Of a stretch of 64,000 nucleotides of DNA, positions 11,218 through 60,665 are shown one piece after another; the stretch's first letter is position 1, and every line of letters begins with the position of its first letter. Below the pieces are notes generated by a model. It saw only the letters and a list, made by a program, of their open reading frames with translations. It searched no databases and was not told the DNA's origin. The translations under genes and the position numbers were made by a program. Source of the DNA: Pecten maximus (taxonomy: Eukaryota); contig NC_047024.1 of the NCBI RefSeq assembly GCF_902652985.1, forward strand, positions 29,946,001 through 30,010,000. Direction: 5' to 3'.

Positions 11218-12138
11218 TTAAATGATCAACAATGGCATGTCATTACCGACACCTTCTGGTCTAGTGCGACAATACGAGATACTGTCTTTTAGTGATTTAC
11301 GGAGTGAATACGAAAATAGCACACATACAAAGAAAGTAATAGCGTGATTACTACAGTTCATGAGATGAGTTATTGTTATAGCGTATTTTAAACCCTGAAT
11401 GAACTCCAAGTCAGTAAACTTGTGGTCAGGAATTATAAAGTAGACAAGGTTGGATATAGTAGCCGGAACTGCGAGGATAAGATATATCATAGAGAGTCCA
11501 AGTATGGCTTTTGTAAGATCAATAGAAATTTTGTCCATTTCAGATTCTTCGGGTGGTTTTGAATAAGTGCATAGTCCGTTCACCATGAAAATGATCAGAA
11601 TCAGAAGCATAAGAAGAGGTGCAAATGTGAGGCAGATGGCCGAAAGCCAGCTCCATATGACATAATATAAGCTGTCCGAAAGCGGGACACAAAAACCATT
11701 TCTGAGCTCGAAGATCCAAAGGCAATGGATGTTAATCAGCATCACTCCAACGAAAATCATAATCAAGACCATTTTGGCCATAGCAATTCTACAAAAACAT
11801 TTCGCTCTTTGATGATTGCAGACAAATATATATCTATCCAGTAACATGGCAACTGCTATCCAAATCCCGCTATGCATAATCATCCTGTATCCGAATTGGG
11901 CTATTCGACATCCAAAGTCTGACATGTTTTCAGCATCAGGGTATCCTGTTACTTTGGCTATCCATGACCCACCGTATATCAATATCAGTATCAGCGTGTT
12001 ATCAACTGAGTAAGCTGTAACATAAAATCCAACTGAGAAAGAACGCAGAAACTTCTGATGATAAACTCCGATTGTCAGTATATTACCTATGACTCCTGTA
12101 ACAATTAACACAGGAATCACACACAGAGATATGTCCAT
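11218..12138 (-). CDS. Rhodopsin-class (class A) peptide-receptor-like GPCR (FMRFamide/sex-peptide receptor-like group)
   Basis: 306-aa uninterrupted ORF with 7 hydrophobic segments, TM1 GN motif (GVIGNILT), Cys at the start of TM3, DRY motif (LLDRYIFVC), TM6 Pro (LAVP) and TM7 NHAITFF, typical of invertebrate peptide-like GPCRs. The N-terminus is unusually short. Confidence 0.88.
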   Translation of the reverse strand: MDISLCVIPVLIVTGVIGNILTIGVYHQKFLRSFSVGFYVTAYSVDNTLILILIYGGSWIAKVTGYPDAENMSDFGCRIAQFGYRMIMHSGIWIAVAMLLDRYIFVCNHQRAKCFCRIAMAKMVLIMIFVGVMLINIHCLWIFELRNGFCVPLSDSLYYVIWSWLSAICLTFAPLLMLLILIIFMVNGLCTYSKPPEESEMDKISIDLTKAILGLSMIYLILAVPATISNLVYFIIPDHKFTDLEFIQGLKYAITITHLMNCSNHAITFFVCVLFSYSLRKSLKDSISYCRTRPEGVGNDMPLLII

Positions 12139-12490
12139 TCTCCGACGGACAATACTCTAGATATGCAGAGGCTGAGTGATGAATGACGAAATGCCGTTGT
12201 TATACCGTACGCTGTATATATATGGTAAAGCCACATGTGGCATTTATCTCTCAAGTCTTCCTCTCTAGCTATTGGTTAAGGCTGTGTATCTGTTAATATA
12301 TTCTATTGGCTCGATACAATACAATATAATAGACCATTATCTTTCTGTGCTACGAATGTTTCAATTATTTGAAATCACTGTTTTATAATAACCCATATTT
12401 ATTTTTTTAAATTATTCCTCTAGAACTAAAATAAAAATGAAAATATAGATGTTAGAAATTATTCTTAAAATTTTACTAATCTAGTAGTTA

Positions 12491-18960: not shown

Positions 18961-19537
18961 ATTTTCCTATGTATACATACATATTCGCATATGTGAACAT
19001 TTGATTCATGAATTACCATTTACCCAAATTATTAGTGTACTGTTCTATTGATGAATGAATACATGTGCATATGTGCTGGTGTATGTACAATGTATATGTT
19101 CATTGAAGACTCGTGTATGTGGATTGGTGGAAGCGAATGTGAACGAGTACGTGATTGTGTGTATTGATGTGTTTACGGTTTGTACCCGCCAAATATGCAT
19201 GCTGATGCTTATTGGGCATGTGATATCATATACACATATGGCTGTGTGTTTAGTAAACAGCAGGCCAAATTACAATCATTCCCCCCTCAATACTTAATGC
19301 CAATCCGATGTAATATAACAATTTCCATTTCAATTTTAATGTTTTGTTACTACTTATGTTATTGTACTGTGGTGACTTATAAAACGTACCTTCTTATTCC
19401 TATTGATAAGTCATTTGTACTACTAAACTCTAGTTAATTTATTACTAAGTTGTACTGGTAACCAAACGTGATGGCTCGCTACGATTTTGCTTAGATTATC
19501 GTTTATTGAACCAGGTGACCCAAAAAGATTGTTTTTC

Positions 19538-20900
19538 GCTACCTAGGATCGATGACTCGTTAGGCGCACTCAAAGGCTCAAAATGGTTTTCGACGCTGGA
19601 CCTCGCCAGTGGTTACTGGCAGGTAGAAATGGACGAAAGAGATAAGCATCTTTTGTAACCACAGGTGGTATTTTCCCAATTTAACGCCATGCCTTTCGGC
19701 TTGTGCAACGCGCCTGCCACTTTTGAACGCCTCATGGACTGTGTCCTGGCAGGACTGCACTGGGAAACCTGTCTCATTTACTTAGACAACATCATCATTT
19801 TTGCTCTTGATTTTGAAACCCACCTAGAACGTCTAGCAGAAGTACTCACCAGACTCCGTACTGCTGGTCTTAAAGTGTCACCTAAAAAGTGCGATTTCTT
19901 CAAGAAAAGAGTGTCATTCCTTGGACATATAGTCTCAGACGAGGGAATAGCTACAGATCCTGCCAAAGTTGAAGCTGTGAAGGAGTGGCCACAGCCAAAG
20001 TCTGTTCATGACATTAGAAGTTTCCTTGGGACTTGCTCTTATTACAGGAAGTTTATCAAAGATTTCTCAAACATTGCAAGACCATTAAATAAACTGACTG
20101 AGGAAGCTGAGAACTTTAAATGGACGTCCGATTGTCAGGAATCGTTTGAGAGGTTGAAGCAAGCTCTTACATCAGCGCCGATACTACAGTATCCCAATTT
20201 GGAGTTACCATTTGTACTGGACTGCGATGCTAGTGGGTACGGAGTTGGAGCAGTCCTTTCGCGACATTGGTCAATCTATCATCTGTACATGAATCTACTG
20301 GATATATACTGGGAAATAGAGTTACCATTGGACCTATTATATGGAAGGCCTCCAGATGTGGAGGAAGATGATCCTTCAGATCTGCCAGAATTCGTCGAAA
20401 AAACTGCGTCAAAGATTGTGGCGGGTGCATGAAAACGCCCGCAACAATATGGTTGAGGCTAGTGATAGGCAGAAAAAGACCTATGATCATCGAGCCAACC
20501 AGCGATATTACCAGGTGGGGATGCCGTCTGGCTGAGGGACAGAAGAAAACGTAAGGGAGTCTCGCCTAAGTTACAAAGTCGTTGGAACGGACCATTCCTA
20601 ATTACAGAAAGACGAGATGACCTAGTATATTTAATTCAGAAGAACAGACGGAGGAAACCCATACCCGTACACCACGACAATCTTAAACTATTTCATGGAG
20701 AGGTGGACATTTTTTAGAGGCAAGAGAGTCAGAGACGGTATCATAACCAAGGGTATTGTCCGTACCAGATCAGTCGGAGGTTAATATCGAAACTTCCGAA
20801 AGGGAAAATAAAACTTGAAATTGTAATGCTCAGGACGGGCTACGACGGGGAAACAGAATTAGGAAACCACCGAAGTGGATGAGCTCGTTCCAGGTCTAAA
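19538..20900 (+). pseudogene. pol: Ty3/Gypsy pol remnant (RT, start of RNase H, integrase C-terminal region)
   Basis: LPRIDDSL...FSTLDLASGYWQV, MPFGLCNAPATFERLM, YLDN (mutated YLDD), FLGHIVS, SFLGTCSYYRKFI, F-L-CDASGYGVGAVLS, then a deletion joining to post-integrase sequence (LPLDLLYG...ARNNM...RQKKTYD...PKLQSRWNGPF). Contains frameshifts. Confidence 0.93.
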
Positions 20901-21329
20901 TGAAAGACAGTAGAGTATAGAAATTGTTTTATCATATACATGGACGGAAAGCGCCGCAAGTTGTAAGAATGGTTAGCGTGTAGCAGCTAACATAGGCCCT
21001 GTGCAGGAAAACAGGCAGAATTAATGCAGGGATACGCTTTATTGGCTGTAAAAAATGTATGGATCTCTCCTTGGACATCGTAACAGTTTTTCGTCAGGGC
21101 CTGACGACCGTCACTGATGACTCATCCTTTCCTGGGCCAAGAGGAAAGAAGTCAGATGTTCCTTGCTTTCAAGCAGGAAGAGAAGACCAGCAGAAACTGT
21201 TTAAAGAAAGAAATATTTTGATTTATGTACCATAACCCATATACCAATCTCTTTCTATAACTATATATGGACTCACGAGCCTATACTTTGTCCATAGAAG
21301 TAATGTACTCAATATTTGTATTTTACAGA

Positions 21330-22521
21330 ATGTTCCAATGCATAGAATGCTACAAGAAGTGCCCAACAATGAAGGGGTTAAACCAACATATCCAGGATTA
21401 ACACGGACAAAAGGAGAGGTGCCCCCATGAAGGGTGTGAATATACCTATCCAAGGGGTCGTACTGCACATCTGGACTCTCACTTGTTTCGTGTCCATAGG
21501 GTTATGAAGAGCCCAGCCATAAGGAGGAATCCTGTGACTCCTAGGGTAGCGAGTGTGGTCCGGCTAGTAAGATCAATAGCGGCCACCTCGTCGACCAGTG
21601 ACGTTCAACATGTATCGGCCATTTAAGAGAGTGCAGATGGGTTTTTTGGCTTCTGCAGGCCGCTTCATTCACTAGAAAGGATCACCCTTGGCAAATTTGA
21701 GGCAGGGTTATTCCAAGAACCACCCCGGAAGCTTATAAAACTCAGCTCTAATGATGTTGATGATACTACATCGGAGACGGCCACCGTTCCCACGGAACGG
21801 AAAGCGGCGATTCCTGAGACGGGTACCCTTCCTTCAGGTCAGGAAGAAGAGAAGTCCCCACCGAAGACAGACACCCTTCCTGCAGGCCAGGGAAGAAGGG
21901 GCGGGAGTATCAGGAACTGACACCCTTCCTGCATGCCAGGAAGAAGGAGAAGAGACATATTCAGAGGCAGACACCCTTCCGGCAGGCCCAGAGGAGGAGA
22001 AGATCCGTGAGTCTTCCGCTCTTCCTGTGGAACAGGAAAAGACTCGAGAGGAGAAGCCCTTGGGAGCTCGGGCTGTCAGCCTTCTGAGGACAGGAGGAAT
22101 GCCGGTCTTTCCTCCTGCGCCTCGACGGTGGGAGCAGGTCGAGGATGAATCCATCTCCGTATTACCTGACCTACTCTGGCCTCCTCGGGATTGGAAGAAG
22201 GCGACACCAGATGGAAAACTGTTGCTGTGGGAGATGGCGGCGGTCATGTTGTGTGGGCAGTCTGCTGGCAGACAGACGATACTTGGCCGCACACAGTTCC
22301 TGTGTTTGCCAGGAGGGCGGATGCCGACATTAGAGGAAGAAGATCGACAGTCAGCGCTGGCGCGATATTTCACATACTTGGCGGTAAAGAAGGTAGCAGA
22401 GACAGGAAGGGATGCAGCAGGTCTGGTCGTCGCTCTGGAGGCAGTTGGAAGAGACGCAGGACTGGATCCTTGCCTGGACTCGATGGAGGGTGTGCCGCTG
22501 GACCTTTTCGTGGAAAATTAA
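21330..22521 (+). pseudogene. Extra (post-pol) ORF of the Gypsy element: two N-terminal C2H2 zinc fingers, acidic repeats, unknown C-terminal domain; disrupted
   Basis: Acceptor-like TTTGTATTTTACAG just before ATG 21330; MFQCIECYKKCPTMKGLNQHIQD*H and CPHEGCEYTYPRGRTAHLDSHLFRVH; four (D/G)TLP(A/S)xxEE-like repeats; C-terminal GGMPVFPPAPRRW...WPPRDW...LLLWEMAA. Contains stops and frameshifts. Confidence 0.7.
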
Positions 22522-24219
22522 ACCGTTAACTTTGAACTATAAAGATTAAATTATATAGGTATATGGGCAAGGTACGTATTTATTATATTAAGTAATGTAT
22601 TCTTGTGGAAGGTAAAATTTATCTTAGGTTTGCATGATTTATCGTATATTGCAGTAAAAAAAAGGAACTAACTCAGTACAGTCTGTGGTAAAATACTTTA
22701 GTGAACCGTCCGTGTAGACGAAATATTTTGCAGTAAATTTTAGTTTTGAGAAGTTTGGTTAAAGTATTATCAAGTAATATAAATCATATCTCCTTGATGG
22801 AGTACCATACGGACCGTGTATGCTGTACTTAGGAGATATATCTGTCTCATTCGTGAACTTTGGTTGTTGGGTACGGAGCTATCAGACCATTGTGGAATGG
22901 AACCATTAACTACTGAAAAATTATATTGAACACTATGTACGTTTTTTGTATAGTTAAGATTATTACTACTGCAGAGTGTGTGTTTAGAGGCACGGATGAA
23001 TGAGAGGACAGCGGAAGTTATTTTTTTTTTACTTTGGTCGCTTGGTTACGGAATACCAGACCATTTGTGTATGGATTCTTATATATGCAATGTAGTTCAT
23101 GAAAAATTGTTATAAGTTCCGGTTAGTGAAAGGAATTTGGAAGTTAGGAAATTTTGAAAGAAGTGATTGATTAGTGTTATATTACTTAATAAATATCTGT
23201 ATATACATTTGTAGTTGAAGTTAGTGGAAGGAAAACTATTTCAGTAATTTGTCTTTAGTGGTAAAGGATTTTTTTTCATTTGTTAATTAGCATTGACGTG
23301 GACGTCAATTCTTTTAAAGTTGAGGGTAATGAAGCGAATTTAGGGCTGGGGGGGGGGGGGGGGGGATATTAGTGTAAAGATCGTGACGGTCATGCTCATT
23401 ACAACAGCTGCTTTTGTTTACTGTCTGTCACAGCTGTTGGATGATTCGTGTAGTAAGAACGTGTTCATTGTATAACCACTATGTAATACAGATGTATTAT
23501 GTATAGTTTGTGTCAGTGAGTTAAAAGTATCACATGGAAGCTGGTAGTTTCAGAACGATGGCTGGTCAGGGCATCACACTGTGCATTATTCATTTACGGC
23601 CGCCATGTTTGCAGCCTTACGTCATAGGCATTCAGCGTCTCAAGACATTGTATTTAATAACGTATCATTATTTAGACCTTACTTTGTAAAAGCAGTGATG
23701 TTCCAGATTGTTTGAATACATAATACATCCAGCACGTAATAATTCCAGGTTTACTATTCGCTAAATTATTGTATTTGATATTTGAGTCATTCCCTCTCGT
23801 TACTTTCAAGAGTGAGCTGGGCTAGGTTGTCGCTTCGGATGCGAATTGAAAAGTAGTTATGATTGCGATGTGAGTTTATTGTAGTAAGAAAGTAGAGAAT
23901 GCTAATAAGAAACTTGTATAGTTAACAGATTGTATTTATTGAAAGTTAGTAGCATATTTTACAATTTACTCCGGAACTATCTGATTGTAGTTCCACGGAA
24001 GATTCTTCCAAGTTGGTGTAAAAAAGGCTAATTTTGGCATCTCTGACCATATTTGGAAGAATTTGCAAACATGGCCACCCGAAAGGTATAAAAGGCCGCG
24101 AGCATTTCAGAATGTTATCCTTGTCCTGTTGACAAACCCGTAGATTACTACGCCTCAAGTCTATCGTAGCATAAAGTAAAGGGAAACAACTCTTACAATA
24201 ATGTTATACCGTCTAGGGA

Positions 24220-24832
24220 TAATATGTAGATATTCGATATCACTACGTATTATTAGCATATTCGTCATATATTTCACATTCATATTGCTAGGGTTAATAC
24301 GTAGATATTTGGTTGCTCTACGTATTAATAGCAAATGTCATTCTGCATTTGCTTATCTGTTTTAAAGATTGTTATTGTAATTCATCATATTTAATACGCA
24401 GATTTTTGGTACCTTTGCGTATGCATAGCAAATGACATTCTTCATTTGCTACACTATTTGCTAACGATATATTGTTGAGATTATTAGTATTTAATACGTA
24501 GAGATTTTGATTTGCTGCGTATTAATAACAAATGTTATTCTACATTTGCTATACTATTTAAGGCTCTAATATTTTGGTTACTATTACATATTTAATACGT
24601 AGATCTTTGATATCTTTACGTATGAGTAGCAATGACGTTCTACATTTGCTAGTTTGAGTATAGAATATTGTACAGCCTAAATCCTAATTTATATATTAGG
24701 ATATCTAGGTATTTTATAACATTAACTAGTAAACGAGTATTACTGTAGTATAATTACTTTCTACTAATTATGATTAATACGTAGATCTTTGGCTTCTCTA
24801 CGTATTGTAGCAAGTGATATTCTGCATTTGCT
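24220..24832. repeat. Array of ~59-bp double-hairpin repeats separated by divergent spacers, inside the LTR
   Basis: TAATACGTAG-N~12-CTACGTA...AGCAAATG-N8-CATTTGCT at 24294, 24391, 24491, 24592 and 24774, plus a degenerate copy at ~24220. Confidence 0.85.
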
Positions 24833-24943
24833 AACTGACGATTACTTGAATAGTTTGCAGTTAAACAGTTAACAGTGATACTTGACTGTACCGTGCCTTG
24901 TTAGTAGCTAAATTGTATTACACAAGGTCGAATTGAGTCTATA

Positions 24944-25419
24944 CCTGCTTGCCCCATTGCATGATCGTAAGAGGCGACTAAATTTGGGATCTTATCTTTT
25001 CTCTTCTTTCTGAACAACGTTCTTCTTCCTAATGTCTCCCTTGACAATGCCTCACTTTTGGCCTTTGGTTGAGCGTTCGCCGCTGTGAGGAAGGCTTTGG
25101 GTTCTGTCCCCTAGCCGAGATGCTGCTCCTGCTTAGCGCTCAGCATATTGGGAGTGGGACGACTGGTTCGCCCGTTGTCAGTATAATGTGACCGGGTGGG
25201 GTGTGCTGCTGGGTGTCTTCGGCAGTATGCTTCAGTGAGGTAGCACTATAAATCGACAAAAGTTCCGGCCTATCACAAGGAGACTTAACACGAACATAAC
25301 GCAGCCTCCCAAAACACACATACACACTCAACACACGCATGCATGTCGCACGCACGGGAGGCCGTCCTTAACTGACCTTAGCTGTTAATAGGACGTTAAA
25401 CAAGGTAAACCAAACCAAA
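24944..25419 (+). mobile_element. Meta-domain SINE inserted in the LTR
   Basis: Degenerate tRNA-like head (~25060-25120), Meta-like core TGCTCCTGCTTAGCGCTCAGCAT...GACTGGTT...CAGTATAATGTG, tail GCTGTTAATAGGACGTTAAA plus (AAACC)n; possible CTATA TSD. Confidence 0.75.
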
Positions 25420-27095
25420 CTATATGTTTATATTAAATTATCATAATGACTCGTTGAGTTCAATAGTAGGTATATGGAAAGAGAGATTTGTAACCCTAGT
25501 TAAACTTCCATGATATTGTATAGTTAATTAAATCATTATTAAGTTGTCATCTGTAAATTATCATCAGTTGTTATGCACTATTGGAATTGTTAATTGTTGA
25601 ATGATTATTGATAACTAATAAATAAATAATTGAGTTGAATTTGATATTGGTCTTGAGTTATGCTTAGAGTAGATGCGTAGTATTTATAAATACAACAAGA
25701 ATCGCTGGAGGTGATCTGTGATCACATGGAATTGACATAACCTGTGCCTGAAGTCAGAAGATAGACCCTAGACATCACGCTACACGACGTAGTGACACAG
25801 TTTCGTTACAATAGCTTGTTTCCATATATTCTATACTGTTTCAGTTTTGTAATGTGAAATATTTTGAGGAAAAAAAAATACCCCTAGAACAGCCAGACAA
25901 ATAATAATTTAATGAAAACATTAATTTATCTATCTTAAAGACATTGTCTTAATTTATTCATCAAAACCTAGTTTATACGACATTACGAATTACCCAAATC
26001 TCCCATAGGCCTATATTATACACATATCAATATATAAAACGTCGTATTTTTGTTTAATTTTCTGTTCAAATGGATTGAATTTAAACATATGTCATTGTCA
26101 ATTATAGGATCTAGATTGAGACAAAGGATTAGGCAAGCTATTTCAACTCATGGATGCCCTCTCCCAGCTTACAAATACATTACAAATGTAGGCCTACATG
26201 ATAACATTGAAATAGGCATAAACATCATTTAAAGTAGACATATAGAATATTTAACATAAACACGGGTCTGTTAAATAAGAATACATGCCAAAATTTATGG
26301 CTGTACTTGATGTAGTGCAAATTGATCACTAGTAGTTAAAACCAGAAATATATACGATATTATATATATACATTTGTATTTCTACTAAAACGAATTATTT
26401 AGGAGTGTTTGGCTCTTTGGGTTTTTTTTAATTGTTGGCCCTAAAAAAGGCCATTGGTGTTGGTCCTGAAAAGGGCCGTTTGATTTCTTCAGCAGCTGGC
26501 TAGTAATCTTCTTATTCTGCATGCGTAGTTCTCCATACCTATGTTGTTGTTTGGTGTATTGTTGTGGCGAGGTGGATTGTATCTGTGTGGTAATCTTGTG
26601 GATACTTGATGTCTTTGCCGGAACGTCACGAAGTTCTTGCCATATCTCTGCTGTAGTTTATATAAGTATGTACTTATATTTCATACATAACGTGTAATAT
26701 GCTCCGAAGATATGCTATCAGGGACATACAATGTATATTATATCAATGAGGCCCAATGTGCATAGCTTATAAAAGGCCGATGACTGATACAGTGTACATG
26801 TACAGTTTTGTATATTATATAGAATATATATGTCCCTGATAATATCGTGTCCATTAGCAGCTTAACCTATCTTTTTTATTCCCCTACTCTGTTTATGTAG
26901 GCCTAATCGTTGTTGACTGTGTAGGTCGAAATTCGTCAAAAAAGAATTTGAATTATAAACTACAATTTATAAAATATAGGCCTAGTTGACATATTTCAGG
27001 TTCGCTCATTTGCGGGTATAAAGAGGTCATGCTCATTAGGAGCCTCTCATTATATTAGACCTATATCGCATTACAAAGTGCTGTTTTTCCTAAAT

Positions 27096-33685: not shown

Positions 33686-34045
33686 ACTGTCTGTCTGTCT
33701 GTAGGCACCCTGTCTGTCTGTCTGTCTTTGTAGAGGCACGCTGTCTGTCTGTCTCTAGGTACCATGTCTGTCTGTGTGGAGGCACCCTGTCTGTCTGTAG
33801 GCACCCTGTCTCTGTGTGGAGGCACCCTGTCTGTCTGTCTGTAGGTACCCTGTCTCTGTGTGGAGGCACCCTGTCTGTCTATCTGTCTGTCTGTCTGTCC
33901 TACAGGCTGTCTGTAGGCACCATGTCTTCCTGTCTGTCTGTGTGGAGGCACCCTGTCTGTCTGTCTGTCTGTGTGTGGGGGGGGGGGGCACCCTGTCTGT
34001 GTGTGTGGAGGCACCCTGTCTGTCTGCCTGTCTGTAGGCACCCCG
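33686..34045. repeat. Compound microsatellite/minisatellite: (GTCT)n interleaved with AGGCACCCT
   Basis: Directly visible; accounts for the five overlapping low-complexity ORFs. Confidence 0.95.
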
Positions 34046-36338
34046 CCGTGGAGCGGCGTCCGCCGTCCATCCGTCCGGCGTCAACTTTTCATTTAAACAA
34101 CTTCTTCTCAATAACCAAGAGGCCTAGTGACTTGATATTGGACCTCTAGCATGCTGGGGTTAAGGGCTACCAAGTTTTTTCAAATAAATGACCTTGACCT
34201 TCATTCAAGGTCACATGGGTCAAAAAGGATATTATCTTCCAACGACTTCTTCTCAATAACCAAGAGGCCCAGGGACTTGATAATGGCCCTGTAGCATGCT
34301 GGGATGAAGGGCAACAAGTTTGTTCAAATAAATGACCTTGACCTTCATTCAAGGTCAAATGGGTCAAAAAGGCTATAATCTTCCAACGACTTCTTCTCAA
34401 TAACCAAGAGGCCTAGGGACTTGATATTGGGCCTGTAGCATGCTGGGATAAAGGGCTACCAATTTTTTTTAAATAAATGACCTTGACCTTCATTCAAGGT
34501 CACATGGGTCAAATAGGCTATAATCTTCAAACAACTTCTCAATATCCAAGAGGCCCAGGGACTTGATATTGGGCCTGTAGCATGCTGGGATGAAGGCCTA
34601 CAAAGTTTGTTCAAATATATGACTTTGACCTACATTCAAGGTCACATGGGTCAAATAGGCTATAATCCTCAAACGACTTCTTCTCAATAACCAAGAGGCC
34701 CAGGGACTTGATATTGGGCCTGTAGCATGCTGGGGTGAAGGGCTACAAAGTTTGTTCAAATAAATGACCTTGGCCTTCATTCAAGGTCACAAGGGTCAAA
34801 TAGGCTATGATCTTCAAACGACTTCTCCTCAATAATCAAGAGGCCCAGGGACTTGCTATTTGGCCTGTAGCATGCTGGGGTAAAGGGCTACAAAGTTTGT
34901 TCAAATAAATGACCTTGACCTTCATTCAAGGTCACATGGGTCAAATAGCGTATAATCTTCAAACGACTTCTTCTCAATAACCAAGAGGCATAGGGACTTA
35001 ATATTCTGTCTGTAACATGCTGGGTGAAGGGCTACCAAGTTTGTTCAAATAAATGACCTTGACCTTCATTCAAGGTCACATGGGTCAAATAGGCTATAAT
35101 CTTCAAACAATTTCTCAATATCCAAGAGGCCCAGGGACTTGATATTGGGCCTGTAGCATGCTGGGGTGAAGGGCTACAAAGTTTGTTCAAATAAATGACC
35201 TTGACCTTCATTCAAGGTCACATGGGTCAAATAGGCTATAATCTTCAAACGACTTCTTCTCAATAACCAAGAGGCCCAGGGACTTGATATTAAGTCTGTA
35301 GCATGCTGGGGTGAAGGGCTACCAAGTTTGTTCCAATAAATGACCTTGACCTTCATTTAACGTCATATGGGTCAAATAGGCTAGACTCTTCAAACGACTT
35401 CTTCTCAATGACCAAGAGGCCCAGGGACTTGATATTGTGCCTGTAGCATGCTAGGTTGAAGGGCTACCAAGTTTGTTCAAATAAATGACCTTGACCTTCA
35501 TTCAAGGTCACATGCGTGGAATAGGCTATAATCTTCAAACAACTACTTCTCAATAACCAAGATGCCCAGGGACTTGATATTGGGCCTGTAGCATGCTGGG
35601 GTGAAGGGCTACAAAGTTTGTTCAAATAAATGACCTTGACCTTCATTCAAGGTCACATGGGTCAAATAGGCTATAATCTTCAAACGACTTCTTCTCAATA
35701 ACCAAGAGGCCCAGGGACTTGATATTGGGCCTGTAGCATGCTGGGGTGAAGGGCTACAAAGTTTGTTCAAATAAGTGACCTTGACCTTCATTCAAGGTCA
35801 CATCGGTCAAATAGCCTATAATCTTCAAACAACTTCTTCTCAATAACCAAGAGGCATAGGGACTTAATATTGTGTCTGTAACACGCTGGGGTAAAGGGCT
35901 ACCAAGTTTGTTCAAATAAGTGACCTTGACCTACATTCAAGGTCACACGGGTCAAATAGCCTATAATCTTCAAACAACTTCTTCTCAATATCCAAGAGGC
36001 CCAGGGACTTTATATTAGGCCTGTAGCATGCTGGGGTGAAGGGCTATGAAGTTTGTTCAAATAAATTACCTTGACCTACATTCATGGTCACAGGGGTGAA
36101 ATTGGCTTAAATGTGTAAACAATAATTTTGTGATAGCCAAGAGTCTCTGAAATATGACATTATGCGAATATTATACTGGAATGAAGGACTAGAGCATTTA
36201 TTAATATGAATAAACCCAGCATACACTGATATTTGAATAAAGAGGTAATCAGCATAGTATGTGTAGACATGACCTCAATCAACTTCAAAGTTGCGGTAGA
36301 GCCAGGTGAGCGATACAGGCCCATTGGGCCTCTTGTTT
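33686..36338 (+). mobile_element. HINE/pearl-like element with ~14 tandem 145-bp monomers
   Basis: Expanded 5' microsatellite; period 145 (CTTCTTCTC at 34101 and 34246); 3' end CCAGGTGAGCGATACAGGCCCATTGGGCCTCTTGTTT. The 5' boundary is uncertain. Confidence 0.85.
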
Positions 36339-36569
36339 TGATAATGTTTGTCTGGACAACTCATTCTAAACTTGTGAGCCAATTTCAATTAGAGTTATGC
36401 ATGTACACATCCATTGAATTGATGCAACCATTCAGTCCCATTTTTACGGATGTGTATACCAATTTGCAAAGCTACGTAATTTCAACTAAAATGAATGAAT
36501 TATTATTTGAAATTATAATTTTCATGCCTGCTGATTGCATTCAATAATAAGAAATATGGATACTTTTCC

Positions 36570-37271
36570 TTTTTAGCTCACCTGCCCGAAGGTCACATGG
36601 GTCAACTATCAAATAGGCTATAATCTTCAAACGACTTCTCAATAACCAAGAGGCCCAGGGACTTGATATTGGGTCTGTAGCATGCTGGGGTGAAGGGCTA
36701 CAAAGTTTGTTCAAATAAATGACCTTGGCCTTCATTCAAGGTCACATGGGTCAAATAGGCTATAATCTTCAAACGACTTCTTCTCGATAACCAAGAGGCC
36801 CAGGGACTTGATATTGGGCCTATAGCATGCTGGGGTGAAGGGCTACAAACTTTGTTCAAATAAATGACCTTGGCCTTCATTCAAGGTCACATGGGTCAAA
36901 TAGGCTATAATCTTCAAACGACTTATTCTCAAACACCAAGAGGCTCAGGTACTTGAGGTTTGGCCTGTCTGTAGCATACTAGGGTGTAGGGCTACCAAGT
37001 TTGTTCAACTGAATGACTTGACCTACGTTCAAGGTCACAGGGGTGAAATATTTTTAAATCTTGCCATAGCCAAGAGTCACCAAGTCCTGATATTAGGCCA
37101 ATAGTATGCTGGAATGAAGGACTAGAATATTTATTGACATGAATAAACCAAGCTTACTGTGATATTTGAATAAATTGGTTATCAGCATAGTATCTGTAGA
37201 AATGACCTCAATCAACTGCAAATTTGCTGTAGAGCCAGGTGAGCGATACAGGCCCATTGGGCCTCTTGTTT
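36570..37271 (+). mobile_element. Second, internally deleted copy of the 145-bp-monomer HINE (~3 monomers)
   Basis: Starts TTTTTAGCTCACCTG (5' sub-TIR) and ends CAGGTGAGCGATACAGGCCCATTGGGCCTCTTGTTT. Confidence 0.85.
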
Positions 37272-37665: not shown

Positions 37666-38124
37666 TTTTACATTTCTATACAATCTTCTGAGACTATTTT
37701 AAAATTGTTCACTCCTATTTCACATACTGTATTCAAATTTCTGTAATAAATTTTTGATATAACTACATGTAAATAATTCTTGTTTCTTTTAAGATTTTGT
37801 CTTAAAATCTCATTTCACTGGACAATTTAATCTGACATTAAGCAGTAACATGACCATTTTCTCCATAAGGAAAATCAAATTGCAATTTGCTCATCGTAAC
37901 ACTAGAAGAAACTTGTTCATATTTTCTTATTGTGAAACATTTTATGCCTTAGTTTGATATAAACACGTTTTGATATGTGACAATGAGGGAGTATTTGGAT
38001 CTTGTGTACATGTTCATATTCCTGCAGCTGTATATTGTAATTTGTACTTCTCAGATGCTTCATATTGCAAACACTGGCCGATATCAAACATGACATTAAT
38101 TATATATTACGGTAAAATATGTCA

Positions 38125-39728
38125 GTCTGCTATCTCAGCTTTTGTGAATTCCTCCCATTTCAAACACTGAAATAGCTCATCTGAATTCCTCCTGGTTCCT
38201 ACACTTAATTAGCTCTTGTGAATAGCTCCCAGTTCATACACAGAGTTAGCTTTTGTAAATTCCTTCCGGTTCAACATTAAATCAGCTCTTGTGAATTCCT
38301 CCAGGTTCATACACTGAATTAGCATTTGTATATAATGTGCTTCCTGGTTCATACACTGCGTTAGCTTTTGTGAATTCCACCTGTTTCATACACTGAGTTA
38401 GCTCTTTTGAATAGCTCCCAGTTCATACACTGCATAAGCTCTTTTGAATTCTTCCTGGATCATACACTAAATCACCTTTTATGAATTCTTCCCGGTTCAT
38501 ACGTTTTTTTCTAGCTCTTGTGAATTCCTCCCGGTTTAAACACTGAATTACCTCTTGTGAATTTTCTCCCTTTCATATGCTGTTGTAGCTCTCATACATT
38601 CCCTGGTTCATATGCTGAATTAGCTCTTGTGAATAGCTTCTAGTTCATACACTGAGTTAGTTCTTGTGAATTCCTTCCAGTTCATACACTAAAACAACTA
38701 TTGTGAATTCCTTCTAGTCCATACACTGAATTCGCTCTTATGAATTACTCCCGTTTCATACACTGAGTTAGCACTTGAGAACTCCTCCTGATTCATGCAC
38801 TGAATTAGCTTTTGTGAATTCCTCCTGATTGATACACTGTGAATTAGCTTTTGTGAATTCCTCTCAGTTCATACGCCGCATAAGCTGTTGTGAATAACTC
38901 CCAGTTCATACACACTAAGAATTCCTCCCGGTTCTCCTCCCGGTTCTCCTCCCGGTTCATACATTGAATAAGCTCCTGTTAATCATACACTGAATTAGCT
39001 CATGTGAATTCCTCCCGGTTTTTACGCTGAATTAGCTCTTGTGAATCTTCCTGGTTCATACACTGAATAAGCTTTTGTGAATTCCTCCCGGTTTAAACAC
39101 AAAATTACCTCTTGTGAATTCTTCCTGGATCAGACACTGAATCAGCTCTATTAAATTTCTCCTGGTTCATAACGAAATCAGCTCATGTGAATCTCTCCCG
39201 GTTCATACGCTGAATTAGCCATTGTGAATAGCTCTCGGTTCATACACACAAAGTTAGCTCATGTGAATTCCTCCCGGTTCATACATTGAATAAGCTCCTG
39301 TTAATCATACACTGAATTAGCTCATGTTAATTCCTCCCGGTTCATACATTGAATAAGCTCCGGTTAATCATACACTGAATTAGCTCATCTTAATTCCTCC
39401 CGGTTCATACGCTGAATTAGCTCTTATGAATTCTTCCCGGTTCATACACTGAATAAGATTTTGGGAATGTCCCCTGGTTTATACACTGAATTAGCATCTT
39501 GTGAATTCCTCCTGGTTAATACACTGAATTTGCTCATGTGAATTGCTCCCTGTTCACACACTGAATTAGCGCTTGATCTTTCCTCCTGATTCATATACTG
39601 AATTACCTTTTGTGAATTCCTCCCGGTTGATACCTGAATTAGCTTTTGCGAATTCCGCCCTTATTTTTCTTCCAGAAAATACACTGAATAAGCTCTTGTG
39701 AATTTCTCCCGGTTCATACACTGAATTA
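38125..39728. repeat. 37-bp minisatellite, ~43 copies
   Basis: Consensus TTCATACACTGAATTAGCTCTTGTGAATTCCTCCCGG. Confidence 0.92.
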
Positions 39729-44350: not shown

Positions 44351-44595
44351 CCTTTTTACATGGAAGCAGAACACTTAAATACTTACGGGTTGGGTTCCAT
44401 GTCAACCCATCATATGAATGTGTTTCTGCTACTTTCTTATAATGGATATTGTATCATACCTTGTGTAGGCTAATAGCACCAATACATGGACACAAACTAA
44501 AACAACCCCATAAGTTCATGTCAAAATGGCATTGATTGTGATCCCAATTTTATTTAAACTAAATCATCAACTATTCCATTTCAGACACAGTCAAG

Positions 44596-44655
44596 ATGAA
44601 GTTATCCAGTTCACTGCGAGAAGTTCCCACTTCCCGTTTGCTCACAATGATGTGA
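44596..44655 (+). promoter_or_regulatory. uORF (19 aa) ending 5 nt before the TRAF6 start codon
   Basis: After acceptor TTCCATTTCAG|44585: ATG AAG TTA...ATG ATG TGA (MKLSSSLREVPTSRLLTMM*), out of frame with ATG 44661. Confidence 0.55.
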
Positions 44656-44660
44656 AATTC

Positions 44661-45031
44661 ATGGGTGATTTCGATGACAGTAATAATTCACCAGAGAGGG
44701 AGCATCATGATTCATCACCTGCTCTTTCTTGGTCGCAAAACGTTTCTGGTGTGAACACTGATACCAGTTATGACCGAAACAGTGACCACACGAGTCGGCA
44801 GAACTATTTTTCACAAGTGCACAGGTCCGGCCAAATGGCCACCGGAAGCGGAAGCGATTGTAGTTCTGGATTTCATTTTAATCAAAGCCGAGAGGAAGGC
44901 TACGACTTCGAATTTGTTTTACCGCGTGAGGACAAATATGACTGTCCAATCTGTTTGTTAGTTCTAAGAGATCCATACCAGACGGAATGCGGGCACAGAT
45001 TTTGTCAAAACTGTATTAAACGATGGCTCAG
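44661..45031 (+). CDS. TRAF6: TRAF6 coding exon 1 (N-terminus and RING finger)
   Basis: EGYDFEFV...KYDCPICLLVLRDPYQTECGHRFCQNCIKRWL is the TRAF6 RING; donor AG|GTTGGT, phase 2. The start ATG is inferred (the frame is open back to the acceptor at 44585). Confidence 0.92.
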
Positions 45032-45761
45032 GTTGGTGTTTCTGATACTTGAGTACTTGCACTGATCGGCCAAATGATTTTAAAAAAGAAAAAAAATGCC
45101 TTAAAATGAGTATTAAGATATAATGTTAAAATCACTGGTCATTTCAGTATATAGCACATATATGTTTCAGAATATCCAGGATTTGAACACATACACAACA
45201 TATCTAACGCACAGTACAGTTTCCATAAGTCACCATATTTAATCGAAAATTACCCTTTGCGAAACACGACACCTGGGTCGATGTCAAAGTCAATCTTTTT
45301 GAATAAGTTCGTGAATTTTCACATTAGGATATGGGCTTGCAATGCAGTGTTGTGTGCGGTTAAGGTGACCGAAATATTTCAATAGGATACATTTATTCTC
45401 AGATATTCTGTAATGTTTTCTAAATTGAATGCTGTAACTGAAAAAAACTAGCATGGAAGTTGTATCGTATCCTATATGACGATGTGTCAATGGTATACAC
45501 ACCGTGTTTCCATGTTTGCCGAAATAACATGTTATATATAACCGAATTATCATTACATGTAAACCAGGTACAATTGGAATTAACTAAAACTTCACCAGTG
45601 ATTGCCAAACGTTACATACAAGTACCTTTTGGGATGACATTGATTCACATATAAGAGATTGTCTTGTACCGATTGATGACACCCTTAATTGTTACCTAAA
45701 TTTGGCTAGATTCAGATGTAAAAAAATTGTTGCCATATAAACTTAACTTAATGTTCCTTAA

Positions 45762-50673: not shown

Positions 50674-51798
50674 GTTGAACGACAGGCGATGGCGAAACAC
50701 ATGCAACACTGTCAACAAGACCACATGCAGCAAATGTGTACAACCATCGTTTCGCTTGTACGTCTACTCCAGTTCAATCCCAGTACCTCAATTGACATCA
50801 CACGGCAGCCCTCCAATCAGAGTGGCCAAGGGGAAGAAGGGGAACAACAATCTTCCTCACTAAACGCGTTATCGGGCTTGCTTCAGGCCAGCATGGCGCT
50901 GGGACCCCAGTTAGGATCGCAGCCGCCTCAGTTACCCCACCGACTGAGGCAGCAGTTCAGTTCGGACAACACACTAAGCCATATATCTTCCGACTCTTCT
51001 ACGAGTAGATCAGGTGAAACGTTGGGGCGAAGAGATGAAGACAGAACAGTAAGTGGTAGAACCCAAGTCATGTCTACTGTTAGTATGACCTCTAATCACA
51101 TCCAGGGTGCAGACCTTGAAGGCGCGCCCAGATTACCCTTTCACCAGGATTTTGAATTCCAGTCACTTAAATGTCAGAATGCAACACAGGATGAAAGTCT
51201 GGCCAGGCACGAACAATCACTAGTTGAAATTCAACAGAAAAATGACACTCTTGAACGGACTAATAGAGATTTAAGATCAAAGGTAAAGGTTCTTGAAAGT
51301 ACTCTTGCAGACATAGAAGGTAGAACGTGCAACGGAACATACCTCTGGAAGATAAGAAACTATTCTAAGTTCCGTAGAGAAGCAGAGCACGGAGACACTA
51401 CCGCAATTCACAGCCCTCCGTTCTATTCCAGCTTCTATGGATATAAGCTGTGCATACGTGTAAATCTCAATGGTGTGGATAGTGCTAGAGGGACACACCT
51501 GTCCGTATTCATTCACTTCATGCAGGGAGAATATGATGATATTCTGGAATGGCCGTTCAGCGGTCGTATCGTTCTTACTGTGTTAGACCAGAACCCGGTA
51601 TGCGAGCAAAGGCATCATGTTATTGAAACTCTTGTATCAAAGCCACATCTAGCTGCTTTCCAGAAGCCCGTGACCCCAAGGAATCATAAAGGATTTGGAT
51701 ACATGGAATTTCTGCCTCTTGGTATCCTAGACAATTCAACCTACATTCGAAATGACACTTTGTTAATCAAAGCATTTATTGTTAATAGTTCTACGTAA
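50674..51798 (+). CDS. TRAF6: TRAF6 coding exon 6 (last zinc finger, low-complexity linker, coiled coil, MATH/TRAF-C domain)
   Basis: TTATAG|VERQAMAKHMQ...; CNGTYLWKI, IHSPPFYSSFYGYKLCIRVNL, HLSVFIHFMQGEYDDILEWPF, RNHKGFGYMEF, YIRNDTLLIK. The six exons total 1974 nt = 657 aa plus stop. Confidence 0.97.
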   Translation, partial: VERQAMAKHMQHCQQDHMQQMCTTIVSLVRLLQFNPSTSIDITRQPSNQSGQGEEGEQQSSSLNALSGLLQASMALGPQLGSQPPQLPHRLRQQFSSDNTLSHISSDSSTSRSGETLGRRDEDRTVSGRTQVMSTVSMTSNHIQGADLEGAPRLPFHQDFEFQSLKCQNATQDESLARHEQSLVEIQQKNDTLERTNRDLRSKVKVLESTLADIEGRTCNGTYLWKIRNYSKFRREAEHGDTTAIHSPPFYSSFYGYKLCIRVNLNGVDSARGTHLSVFIHFMQGEYDDILEWPFSGRIVLTVLDQNPVCEQRHHVIETLVSKPHLAAFQKPVTPRNHKGFGYMEFLPLGILDNSTYIRNDTLLIKAFIVNSST

Positions 51799-51908: not shown

Positions 51909-53163
51909 ATAACAGTGCTGTTAATTATCTGAAGGTATAAGTGGTCCGGAATGTATTAGTGTTTAATTAATTAAACTTTTCAAATTTAAGTTTAGAAGTT
52001 TGAGTTTTCTCATTGGATACCAGACCAAAATCTGTTGACAAATAGGAAGTTTTGCACATATGGTTTGGGAGAAATTTGACTACTGTAAAAGAATTGTGAA
52101 AAGAAACAATTACAGGAGTGTAAATCTTTTATCAGTCTTCTCATGTATTAGTGCAATACTTAATTGCATATTCCTTGAAAATTTTTAGATGCTTTCATTT
52201 TAGAGAAAGGTGCATCCAATTTGGAATATTATATATTATCAATATAATTGAAAGCTATTACACGTCATTTCTACTGAAAAGGCCTTTTACACTGGTGCAT
52301 TCATGTAATTCTACTATGTTCTAATGCTAAAGTGACCTTTTACCTTTGAACAGTATGTTAAACGTCCGAGAAAAGGCGTTTATATTTGCCTTGTAACGAG
52401 ACTTTTCCATTGGTTTTACTTTTGCAGACCTGCTGACTTTGACCGTTACCTTGATCTACTTTTATAAACAATTCCGAATTATAACCCACAGTATACTAGT
52501 CTAGTTTAAGACTAATCTAAGAAGGACAACGGTCCAGCGTCCTGGCCAGTGGTCATTTTAATGTTGGGAGAGCATGAATGAGCATCTTGGATTGCCATTA
52601 ATACACGTGTGCAACTCGAATTTTAGGTTGTTCGGGAGTATGTGGCTTTAACAATCGCAAGGTCGTATCATGCATGTTTGTGGTGCTAACTATTATCTTC
52701 CCGTTTCGCTAAATTGTTTCAATTTCATATTTTGGACATGTATGCATATTTATCAATATCTTTTTATCTCTACATTAATCATAATTTTATGACTTGCATT
52801 TTGCTATACCTGCTGAATCACGCAATATAAATAGGGGAGTAATTTTAGTAGCGCGCCGCATTTTGTACTTCTCATTTCATATCGTCTTACCTGATTCAGG
52901 TCACTTACTTTACAAATGTACTTGAATCTTAATACAGCATTTTGATACCGCAGACGACTTAACACTGTAAGCATTCCGAAGTAAATACATCTATTTGAGA
53001 TGATACGTACATACCGTGGAGGACGGATAAAGGGTTTGGTACACCTACCAGTAATCAGGCACTATTTTCATTGCTATTTACTACTTTGTGGTACTGTTAA
53101 CTACTACTAATAATAAACAGAGTACAATTATTACCAGAATGTGTAGAATTCGAATAGTTTAGA

Positions 53164-54511
53164 TTTTTAGCCCACCATGATCAGATGGTGGGCTATTCAA
53201 ATCGCCCTGCGTCCGTGGTCCGTCGTCCGTCCGTCCCTCCGTCCGTCCGTCCGTCCGTCCGTAAACAATTCTTGTTATCGCTATTTCTCAGAAAGTACTG
53301 AAGGGATCTTTCTCAAATTTCATATGTAGGTTTCCCTTGGTGCCTAGTTATGCATATTGCGTTTTGAGACCAATCTGAAAACAACATGGCCGACAGGCAG
53401 CCATCTTGGATTTTGACAATTGAAGTTTGTTATCGCTATTTCTGAGAAAGTACTGAAGGGATCTTTCTCAAATTTCATATGTGTGTTCCCCTTGGTGCCT
53501 AGTTATGCATATTGCGATTTGAGACCAATCTGAAAACAACATGGCCGACAGGCAGCCATCTTGGATTTTGACAATTGAAGTTTGTTATCACTATTTCTGA
53601 GAAAGTACTGAATGGATCTTTCTGAAATTTCATATGTAGGCTTCCCTTGGTGCCTAGTTATGCATATTGCGTTTTGAGACCAATCAGAAAACAACAAAGC
53701 CGACAGGCAGCCATCTTGGATTTTGACAATTGAAGTTTGTTATCACTATTTCTGAGAAAGTACTGAATGGATCTTTCTGAAATTTCATATGTAAGTTTCC
53801 CTTGGTGCCTAGTTATGCATATTGCGTTTTCAGACCAATCTGAAAACAGCATGGCCGACAGGCAGCCATCTTGGATTTTGACAATTGAAGTTTGTTATCG
53901 CTATTTCTGAGAAAGTACTGAAGGGATCTTTCTCAAATTTCATATGTAAGTTTCCCTTGGTGCCTAGTTATGCATATTGCGATTTGAGACCAATCGGAAA
54001 ATAACATGGCCGACAGGCAGCCATCTTGGATTTTGACAATTGAAGTTTGTTATCGCTATTTCTGAGAAAGTACTGAAGGGATCTTCCTCAAATTTCATAT
54101 GGATGTTCCCCTTGGTGCCTCGTTATGCTTATTGCATTTTGAAATCAATTGGAAAACAATATGGCCGACAGACCGCCATCTTGGATTTTGACAAATGAAG
54201 TTTGTTATCTCTATTTCTCAAAGTACTGAAGGGATCTTTCTCAAATTTCATAAGTAGGTTCCCCTTGGTCCCTTGTATTGCATTTTTGGACCAGTCTGTC
54301 CTGAAAACAACCTGGCAAACAAACAGCCATTATCGTTAAATCTCAAATTTTTTATATAGCTAGGATTCCCTTGTTTGAAAAGTACTGGAGGGATGTCTCA
54401 ATTTGCACAGATTAGTAAAATGAAGGGAAAAGTAGAGAAAAGATCAATCTGACATGGAACCTATGAAGATCATTCAATGGTGGGCGCCAAGATCCCTCTG
54501 GGATCTCTTGT
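53164..54511 (+). mobile_element. Young, complete HINE/pearl-like element with ~7 tandem 155-bp monomers
   Basis: 5' TTTTTAGCCCACCAT-GATCAG-ATGGTGGGCT hairpin/sub-TIR, (GTCC)n microsatellite, period 155, 3' ATGGTGGGC sub-TIR plus AGATCCC-TCT-GGGATCT hairpin plus CTTGT. Confidence 0.9.
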
Positions 54512-57500: not shown

Positions 57501-58152
57501 CAAATACAATAAAATCGGGTGTGACATAACACCTACCTTACATATATGGATAAATTAGATATTTATTTACCCCAGAACACCCATTTAGTCCCATCTAGGT
57601 GTTTTATTCCGTCCGTATAGACCCTCGTTTTACGCTAGTCAAAATTTCATACTTGACTCGACGCAATATTGCTAACTATGTAGGTCGCGGGCGGCCTAAT
57701 TACCCAAATCAGTGCGCGATGGAGCGAAAAGAAAAAAATTCAACATTTATTTTTATATATTTTACCCCTTATAATTTATAAATAATACCTTTTTGAATTT
57801 AATGTAACATGTTTTGGTAAATAATAAGCTTGGTTTTCTTAATTTAAACCATGCAAGAAGAAAAACACAAAAAAACATATGTGGTCTTTTCGGTCCATCG
57901 CGTTCCGATTCGAGTGGTTAGTCGTACTGTCACTTACAAAATGGCGTGTCAACAGTACGAAATTTTGACTAGGGTAAAGCGAGGGTCTGTACTGACGAAA
58001 TAAAACACCTAGATAGGACTAAATGGGTGTTCTGGGGTAAATACATATCTAATTTATCCATACGTAGGTGTTATGTCACACCCGATTTTATTGTATTTGT
58101 ACCAAATTCTTAGCGACACCAAACGGTGTCGGATAATTCCACGTTTTCATAT

Positions 58153-58377
58153 TTTGGTTTGTTTGTTTTTTTGTTTAACGTCCTATTAACAGCCAGGGTC
58201 ATTTAAGGACGTGCCATGTTTTGGAGGTGGAGGAAAGCCGGAGTACCCGGAGAAAAACCACTGGCCTACGGTCAGTACCTGGCAACTGCTCCACATAGGT
58301 TTCGAACTTGCAACCCAGAGGTGAAGGGCTAGTGATAAAGTGTCGGGACACCTTAACCACTCGGCCACCGCGGCCCC
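58153..58377 (-). mobile_element. Full-length tRNA-derived V-SINE
   Basis: Minus strand: GGGGCCGCGGTGGCCGAGTGG (A-box), GTTCGAAAC (B-box), V-domain GTGGTTTTTCTCCGGGTACTCCGGCTTTCCTCCAC, tail GCTGTTAATAGGACGTTAAA(CAAA)n. Confidence 0.88.
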
Positions 58378-58543: not shown

Positions 58544-60457
58544 TATATACATGTATATATTTTCATATAGTAGTGCGCTCTGGCCCTACACCAGACATTG
58601 TGACAGGGCCAGAGAAAACTCGGGCTAACATGTATCATAAACCAGGTGAGCGATACAGGCCTTTTAGGCCTCTTGCTTATTTTGCCTTCTGCATTTCAAC
58701 ATAACATAACAAAATTTTGTTTTTGTTTAATGATATTTTATTAATAAAACGGTCTATCAGCTCACCCAAAGTGGTAGTAATGGGACATTCCTTTGTTTCA
58801 TCGATTTATTCTCTGTTGTTTATGTAGCATTTGTTACAAGCTACTTATTTCAAATTCTGCACCTTTTTTTAAGATCGAAGAGCAAACTGTACCACGAAGG
58901 GGTTGGAAGTGGAGCTACGTCAATGTTTACTTACACCACATAAGGTTTCTCTTGTGTTCTCTTTTTCATTAACATATTTACGATTACTCCTTTTCTCCAT
59001 TGTGTTTAGTTTATTAACCAAAGAAAAAAAGAATGATTAAGTTTTCCTAAGACATAGTCACTGATATTTGTCTTCTCACTAAAATGAAATGCAAAATATA
59101 ATATTCATGGTCAAACTATGTACATTGTATTTACGTCGTCGCTGATAAATTGACAAGCTTGTTAGGTGATATCTTGACAGTTACAATAGGTGCTTATAAG
59201 GAAACACTTCCTGGTTTCCTAGTCATGTTGTGTTTTACTTTTTTCAAGCACAGATACCCGTGAATGCAGACATGTGCATGTAATACTGTTACGAAAGTGT
59301 AGTGGGTAAGGCATTTTTAACTTGGGTTTAGGAGTGTCTAAGTCGAGTTTTGTTGGCAACCCAAAGTAGGCTATCTGACATTTGATTAGGATACTGTGTA
59401 ATGGTTTACAGAGTGTAACAACATTATGTTAGGATTCCTGTCCACTATTATTTGTGTATTTAAGAGTTATGAGAGAATCTAGTGTTTCAATAGAATACCT
59501 TGTCACTATTTTGGTGGCCCTTTATCGTGGTCTGATATTTCTTGTTCAGAGTGTAGAAGATAAATATAACTTTGTTTCTACCTCTATCACGATTACTTCC
59601 GAAAACAATTCACTACTGAAAGAAACCATTTTTTTTATTATCTTAAGAGCAAATGAACCAAATACCCTGTGATACAAAAGGTGTACAATAGAGGGCGTTA
59701 TCAGGGACAGAAACACCTACACAGTATATGACGTAATTATATCATGATTCATTTATTGGTGGGTGTACATGGATCATCTTTTCATTTACATCACGATGTA
59801 TTCGTCCTCAGTTCATGGTGTGCACCAAAACAGATAACAAATGCAGTGCATCAGCATTTAAAAAAAAACCAAATCAACATATCAACAAGTTTCTGAATTA
59901 ACGACAGAGCTAGCGATACCACATACAAAAAATTATGCGGGTACCACCCCGTTGTCAACATAATACATATGAAACAGTATATAACATGAGATATAAAACA
60001 GGCAGGTGCTATTTAAATCGTCCTCTGGCTTTGCATGGTTACCTTTTTTTGCAGATAAGAGTAGTTAAATTTTGCACAGGTACAGTATTAACTAGTTTAA
60101 TGATACACCTCGCTTATGCACTGCTCCTAAAATACACCAGTGTCACATATTCGGAAAATACCGCGCCCTATATTTAATTCATGGAAAATGTCCCGTTCAC
60201 AGAATTAAAGCTCTATTGAACACGGATTGTTACCTTATATTTTTCAGGTTGGCTTATTTTTCAAAAGTCAGAAAGATTTAACTAGTAACTACTTTATCGT
60301 TCTGATTGTTGGTATGCTGAAAATAACCAAGTTGACTGTATATTTAGTGACGGGTATTATGATATGATAGTGATGTAAAATTGACAATCGAATTTAACAG
60401 AAATGTTGATGAATAGCATATATATATATATAAAGAATGAATATGTACATGTATAGC

Positions 60458-60665
60458 TTGGTTTGTTTTTGTTTAACGTCCTATTAACAGCCAGGGTCAT
60501 TTAAGGACGTGTCAGGTTTTGGAGGTGGAGGAAAGCCCGAGTACCCGGAGAAAAACCACTGGCCTACGGTCAGTACCTGACAACTGCCCCGCGTCGGTTT
60601 CGAACTCGCAACCCAGAGGTGGAGGGCTAGTGATAAAGTGTCGAGACACCTTAACCACTCGGCCA
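60458..60665 (-). mobile_element. V-SINE copy (same family as 58153-58377), slightly 5'-truncated
   Basis: Near-identical body; TSD GTATAGC at 60451-60457 and 60667-60673. Confidence 0.88.

Follow-up and report, generated by a model that had tools for sequence, protein, structure and literature searches.

The response elements of HTLV lie in the LTR (PMC3504254). In HTLV-1/2, RxRE is one structured fold of 226-254 nt near the major donor, unspliced RNA has RxRE-2 at its 5' end, and the regulator Rex is produced from spliced RNA and binds through an arginine-rich motif. The Cer1 element of C. elegans encodes CERV, an accessory protein translated from a spliced mRNA that has a zinc-binding motif, a C4-type loop and G/M domains and is needed for the export of unspliced RNA; no RNA target is identified in the export section of the paper (PMC10309623). 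In MLV, Psi consists of consecutive stem-loops immediately 3' of the donor, with pyrimidine-G motifs, and the NC has a single knuckle (PMC2951377). The foamy virus LTR contains a donor upstream of the poly(A) signal, structure in R matters there, and the site is chosen by U1 and RNA structure; in the abstract of PMC3694450, the structure covers the donor itself and repeated units are unmentioned. Conservation of stem-loops has also been noted for long R regions in general (PMC3601003).

We analyzed an array of double hairpins in an LTR of the scallop Pecten maximus within a window of 64,000 nucleotides, meaning the whole stretch of DNA examined. Similar to RxRE, the array is predicted to be structured RNA in an LTR near a candidate major donor, and the counterpart of Rex would be a putative zinc-finger protein made from spliced RNA. 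However, the scallop array is a variable number of 60-nt units rather than one fold, and the candidate protein combines two C2H2 fingers with an unrelated domain in place of an arginine-rich motif. Compared by description, the putative scallop protein resembles CERV as an LTR-retrotransposon accessory protein with a zinc-binding motif, and CERV differs in its C4-type loop and G/M domains. The array resembles MLV Psi in its position just 3' of a candidate donor and its pyrimidine-G motifs, beside a Gag with one knuckle, but it lies inside the LTR and upstream of AATAAA, whereas Psi of MLV follows the LTR and does not form a tandem array. As in the foamy virus LTR, a candidate donor lies upstream of a candidate poly(A) signal. 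No description of the array or of the adjacent extra ORF was found in the literature searched, which did not extend to Repbase, to subscription journals or to the PMC6238403 supplements, where the families may be listed. In the main text of PMC6238403, a survey of mollusc LTR elements, the terms ORF, zinc and PBS do not occur.

The array and its element

The array in the 3' LTR was found to comprise six double-hairpin units, five good and one degenerate, the latter with a rearranged hairpin 2 (Table 1); unit coordinates were taken from a covariance model built from the same six units. Hairpin 1 has a stem of 10-11 bp and a loop of 13 nt, and hairpin 2 has a stem of 9 bp and a loop of 6-8 nt. 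The spacers measured 36-40 nt, with a single long one of 122 nt. Three strict double hairpins were present in 24220-24835 (616 nt), whereas dinucleotide shuffles contained one in 5 of 500 cases and none in 495, which places the array far above chance. Folding of one unit gave z = -5.6. These results bear out the preliminary description of five good units of ~59 nt and a degenerate copy, with spacers of ~40 nt and one of ~125 nt; the compensatory pair it had reported in the 24391 unit and the G-U-compatible change in the 24491 unit were likewise present. No Rfam family matched over the array at E <= 5, and four array loci gave 0 matches at the gathering score.

Table 1. Features of the array, of the element that carries it and of the rest of the window
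Feature	Position	Strand	Basis
ORF of rhodopsin-family GPCR	11218-12156	-	
Reverse transcriptase and RNase H remnant, 5'-truncated, broken	19449..20432	+	Pfam RVT_1 and RT_RNaseH_2 above cut-off
Integrase C-terminal remnant; bulk of integrase deleted in the window copy	20487..20714	+	Pfam Integrase_p58_C; comparison with L002
Candidate splice acceptor, pyrimidine-rich tract and CAG, one base before extra-ORF ATG	21302..21328	+	
Extra ORF: two C2H2 fingers, acidic/proline-rich repeat linker, conserved C-terminal domain (22060-22518)	21330..22521	+	
3' LTR, TG...CA, ~2.0 kb without later insertion	23330..25810	+	ends common to other copies; solo-LTR duplications
TATA box, predicted transcription start ~25-30 nt downstream	24087..24093	+	sequence
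Candidate major splice donor	24173..24181	+	AAA/GTAAAG in window copy, AAG/GTAAAG in other copies
Unit 1, degenerate, hairpin 2 rearranged	24219..24290	+	covariance model
Unit 2, double hairpin	24294..24354	+	covariance model, folding
Unit 3, compensatory C-G pair and a G-U pair	24391..24451	+	both common to 7 loci
Unit 4, U-G pair	24491..24551	+	change common to 8 loci
Unit 5	24592..24651	+	covariance model
Unit 6, G-U pair in hairpin 2	24774..24833	+	change common to 9 loci
Later insertion, high-copy ~480-bp interspersed repeat, not the element's own	24942..25422	.	absent from other LTR copies; many flanks have one
Candidate poly(A) signal AATAAA	25617..25622	+	same place in 9 of 9 LTRs
Histone 3' stem-loop, weak match	26413-26457	-	E = 0.008, below gathering score
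Tandem array, 145 nt	34015-37060		
Tandem array, 37 nt	38112-39660		
Tandem array, 155 nt	53117-54346		
RING exon of TRAF-like gene	44514-45065	+	
MATH exon of TRAF-like gene	50674-51798	+	

The element carrying the array is a decayed Ty3/Gypsy LTR retrotransposon with the order reverse transcriptase (RT), RNase H, integrase. A DNA search of the 918-Mb genome returned 11 candidates, from which nine LTRs were kept as family A, the fragments L010 and L015 being excluded from all counts. These nine are the window copy, six solo LTRs and two 5' LTRs that precede a primer-binding site, presumably one for tRNA-Leu, and together they carry 56 units (2-8 each). All six solo LTRs have 4-bp target-site duplications, five of them perfect. 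The location of the array inside an LTR, as originally proposed, was confirmed by the TG...CA ends, the duplications around the solo copies and the primer-binding sites. It was noted that the duplications (flanks of L003-L007 and L009) read ATAT or GTAT, which suggests a sequence-specific integrase. A CGCCATnTT motif, presumably YY1-like, occurs at window position 23601 and in the U3 of seven of eight families, at -460 to -620 in six. The ~480-bp repeat inserted in the window LTR was also encountered near 58149-58211 and 60440-60509, is abundant in RNA contigs and sits in several related elements.

Within the window LTR, the order is TATA box (24087), candidate donor (24176), array (from 24220) and AATAAA (25617), and the array begins 44 nt downstream of the candidate donor. 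An exact-match search recovered the TATA box in six of the nine family LTRs; the candidate donor is present in eight of nine, matching the U1 consensus at only 6 of 9 bases. Because the array lies between the TATA box and AATAAA, it is predicted to be transcribed, and if the candidate AATAAA is used it would fall in R and thus be at both ends of the full-length RNA. Contigs from RNA runs X1 and X2 cover the LTR and the array at a depth of ~4-8; they cover U3 too, so DNA or read-through may be the source of this coverage.

Pairing, strand bias and related families

We assessed how the parts of the unit vary among the six unit types of copy L005. Stems differed at 35 of 565 sites (6%), loop 1 at 50 of 190 and loop 2 at 32 of 120 (26-27%), and the spacers were 38-66% different (34-62% alike). 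The earlier claim that stems are conserved while loops and spacers drift therefore holds for the stems, which are slowest, but not for the loop cores, since 6 of the 13 positions in loop 1 did not vary and loop 2 had an invariant core of 5 nt. Family A stem changes found at two or more loci kept pairing in eight cases and broke it in two, compared with 9:20 for changes private to one locus (p = 0.011); two aligner-gapped rows were re-read as G-U from the ungapped listing, and without them the shared changes stand at 6:2 (p = 0.042). This count leaves out gap events as well as three damaged hairpin-2 arms. Covariation within family A, covering 17 of the 56 units, yielded one compensatory pair with a score reached by 48 of 500 shuffles, which is not significant. 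Of the test set out in the preliminary description, the slower change of stems relative to loops and spacers was observed and significant covariation within the family was not, the strong signal coming from other families.

Related elements in the same genome were located through the extra ORF. Family B (L092, L098, L108-L122), with an RT 75% identical to that of family A, has 3-9 units in its fuller copies, most of them preceded by a third hairpin, and its array begins 35 nt past a donor-like AAG/GTA. Family C (L153, L163-L178), with an RT 68% identical to that of family A, has 1-10 nearly identical units with a period of ~110 nt, located 127-153 nt past candidate donors. Families A, B and C have the unit shape and the LTR position in common, while the stem letters differ. 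The loop is 12-15 nt long in family B and 9 nt in family C, and the letters conserved between families sit in the asymmetric loop. It was noted that the two LTRs of one insertion can differ in units, with 6 and 3 at G000:C16:3077500-3089500 (flanking LTR 97-98% identical), 9 and 3 at C11:13244000-13258000, and 1 and 4 at C6:31180000-31193500. In family F3, the elements L094 and L095 (G000:C8:11987700-12017699) are arranged head-to-tail with one LTR in common.

When nine chosen units from the three families were compared over the eight inner pairs of hairpin 1, 71 of 72 cells paired in a table that was anchored on structure by hand and is so biased toward structure, and five of the eight positions used two or three different Watson-Crick pairs. 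As an independent check, a structure model trained on family A alone was run on ten loci (86 kb). Of its 18 matches, the ten best were units of families B and C, all on the sense strand of the element, with best E-values of 0.014-0.06 that are rough. The sequence-only model gave only partial matches to these units (E 5.7-7.3), and in ten loci (100 kb) of array-less families the structure model returned one match at E = 1. In the cross-family count, stem changes at two or more loci kept and broke pairing 14:5, compared with 16:34 for private changes (p = 0.003). RNAalifold found no structure in a cross-family MAFFT alignment, a result of the 3' arms being out of register there.

A genome scan with the loop motif gave 59 matches compared to 96 in the control and no further array family; one candidate was a satellite and others lacked an array. 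A suspected single unit in family F9/F7 was unsupported by the structure model. In the LTR of family F9 (L149; G000:C1:56876000-56885999, minus strand), past the TATA box, a different branched stem, long and rich in G-U, occurs twice; it folds better on the sense strand (z -4.2 compared to -1.9). No array was found in viral contigs or, by protein, in the metagenome (0 each), and the metagenome pattern search gave nine single-site matches and no arrays. These single sites scored 17-28 bits, which is why E-values of the structure model are taken as rough.

An explanation without function is that a chance palindrome was neutrally amplified by reverse-transcriptase slippage or unequal exchange. 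The number of units is indeed unstable and can differ within a single insertion from one LTR to the other, the units of family C hardly differ among themselves, and many private changes break stems. However, three families whose LTR tails have no nucleotide-level similarity share the shape and the place of the unit, stems diverge far less than spacers, and shared changes keep pairing. Neutral amplification is thus disfavored, and we regard it as quite improbable.

An additional question is whether the array acts as RNA or as DNA. Pooled over the three families, the shared stem transitions gave 13 G-U against one A-C on the sense strand, a count in which some events reflect recent common descent, one locus (C355) may be represented by two haplotype copies, and family B and C units with more than three arm changes were dropped in matching. 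The background in the non-array part of the LTR was 28:29 (p = 0.003), and the 13:1 ratio is therefore not a general strand bias. This excess points to an array acting at the RNA level. A-to-G editing of folded RNA could raise the G-U bias, and it would still imply RNA structure. Folding energy picks no strand, both giving similar z-scores.

The DNA reading, raised in the preliminary description as dyad protein-binding sites, takes the repeats as inverted half-sites recognized by a DNA-binding dimer with a specificity that shifted from family to family. Dyads would also predict symmetric changes in both arms, the spacing is fairly constant within family A, and the extra ORF encodes C2H2 fingers. 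A one-strand bias of 13:1 is nevertheless unexpected for double-stranded DNA, the loop length varies between families, and the conserved letters belong to an asymmetric loop. DNA half-sites appear improbable on these grounds. The small-RNA precursor cluster, also suggested initially, fits repeated hairpins in a transcribed region. The stems are 9-11 bp in the window and 9-13 bp taken more widely, whereas Drosha and Dicer substrates are far longer (a microRNA precursor would have a stem of about 22 bp or more and conserved arms), the arm sequences differ between families, and no Rfam family matches over the array. This reading is unsupported, and we give it hardly any weight.

The motif is a real, selected RNA motif that is absent from Rfam. 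The multimerized cis-element under selection for RNA structure that was first proposed is upheld by the cross-family covariation and the sense-strand G-U bias, and it is probably a docking array for protein at the RNA level.

Candidate ligands

The extra ORF, which in the window copy is broken by a stop and frameshifts, was examined as the source of a ligand. In 8 of 11 loci, representing seven families, a YAG preceded by pyrimidine-rich sequence ends 0-1 nt before its ATG, the other three loci being disrupted there, which suggests translation from a spliced RNA. The donor-to-acceptor joint was absent among the joints listed for the window (runs X1, X2, X3 and X13; 15 of 93, nearly all from the high-copy insertion) and among the five joints listed for a family B copy (runs X1-X4).

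The bay scallop homologue P0001 is 59% identical over the C-terminal domain, which recurs in 307 clusters at E <= 0.001 (50% clustering). All named relatives are bivalve (Argopecten, Pecten, Mytilus, Mercenaria and Pinctada; four of ten looked up carried a name), and one or two fingers are present in 53 of 86 proteins of at least 300 aa. In the scallop protein P0002, the domain is fused to a kinase-like domain. Neither the window ORF nor any of 12 relatives had the domain covered by a Pfam family, the PDB sequence searches returned nothing clear, and a homologue search with a single protein gave none. The domain was modeled with a pLDDT of 96; Foldseek against the PDB found no match at E <= 0.001, the best VIA match had a Z of 2.4, the viral library gave none and the ESM Atlas came back blank. 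A lack of fold match does not prove a new fold, but the C-terminal domain is an undescribed protein family. Three loose matches to the NES pattern in P0001 were not discriminating.

All three array families have T-[MLR]-K-[GSA]-L-[NK]-Q-H as the helix of the first finger, unlike three families that lack the array. None of the trees built from RT, RNase H-integrase, Gag or the C-terminal domain resolved the array families, and monophyly could be neither established nor rejected (p-AU 0.07-0.45); kinship may therefore account for the shared helix. The extra ORF is present in at least five families in which no array was found, indicating that the protein does not need the array.

Binding of the array by the zinc-finger protein is plausible. 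About half of the weight that we place on RNA-level docking goes to this protein as the ligand, and our leading, though tentative, interpretation is that the array forms its docking sites as a Rex/Rev-like response element. Transcription would start from the LTR TATA box, and splicing from the LTR donor to the acceptor before the zinc-finger ATG would yield the zinc-finger mRNA. The units would fold in vivo in the sense-strand RNA of the element, where the conserved loop (U-U/A-G core) may be recognized on a stem of any sequence and several copies of the protein could dock. Bound protein would then restrain use of the adjacent donor or favor the export of unspliced RNA, so that genomic RNA would build up once the spliced product suffices, and avidity would be tuned by the number of units (1-10). 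HTLV Rex with its RxRE and CERV of Cer1 are the precedents for such a mode of action. Several points weigh against this interpretation, namely the 6 of 9 match of the donor to U1, the ORF in array-less families, the lack of significant covariation within family A, the similar folding of both strands, the possible kinship behind the helix match, and family F9, which has the first-finger helix of the array families yet no unit (structure model best E = 4). Moreover, proteins that pair C2H2 fingers with an acidic linker frequently turn out to be activators that bind DNA. If AATAAA is used, the spliced RNA would carry a 3' copy of the array too, which also counts against it.

The main rival, somewhat unlikely in our estimate, is a packaging or dimerization signal for the Gag nucleocapsid knuckle with the guanine of each loop as contact. 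Across all three array families the array lies just 3' of a candidate donor (35-153 nt), as does Psi in HIV-1 and gammaretroviruses, and their Gag has one CCHC knuckle. Loop 1 holds UUUG, UCUG, UUCG or UUAG, and MLV NC binds unpaired UCUG (PMC2951377). However, families without the array have a knuckle of this type too, the spliced RNA would share the array given the downstream AATAAA, inspection revealed no self-complementary kissing loop that all three families share, and one or two units are enough in some LTRs.

A further alternative, which we rate as unlikely, is that the array docks host RNA-binding proteins as a splicing silencer, a constitutive export element or a 5'/3' poly(A) switch. 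Independence from the zinc-finger protein would explain the array-less families, the UAG loops presumably resemble hnRNP A1/Musashi sites, and the foamy virus LTR offers a precedent in its donor and its structure-dependent choice of site. A host ligand should nevertheless keep the stem or the loop more constant than observed, there is no Rfam match to CTE-like or other families, and the array does not pair with the donor in the predicted fold.

For invertebrate LTR retrotransposons with a spliced gene, the protection, export and selection of unspliced RNA are largely unmapped. Here, a short repeated RNA unit, for which three families supply natural compensatory variants, adjoins a candidate ligand that is widespread in bivalves, and for this reason the question is directly testable with 60-nt RNAs. 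It is possible, if doubtful, that a bivalve Ty3/Gypsy lineage independently evolved a switch in the style of complex retroviruses, in which a spliced accessory protein would read a tandem RNA element in the LTR and copy number would tune the balance of spliced and genomic RNA. Even with Gag or a host protein as the ligand, the locus still offers a protein domain that has not been described and an RNA motif that Rfam lacks.
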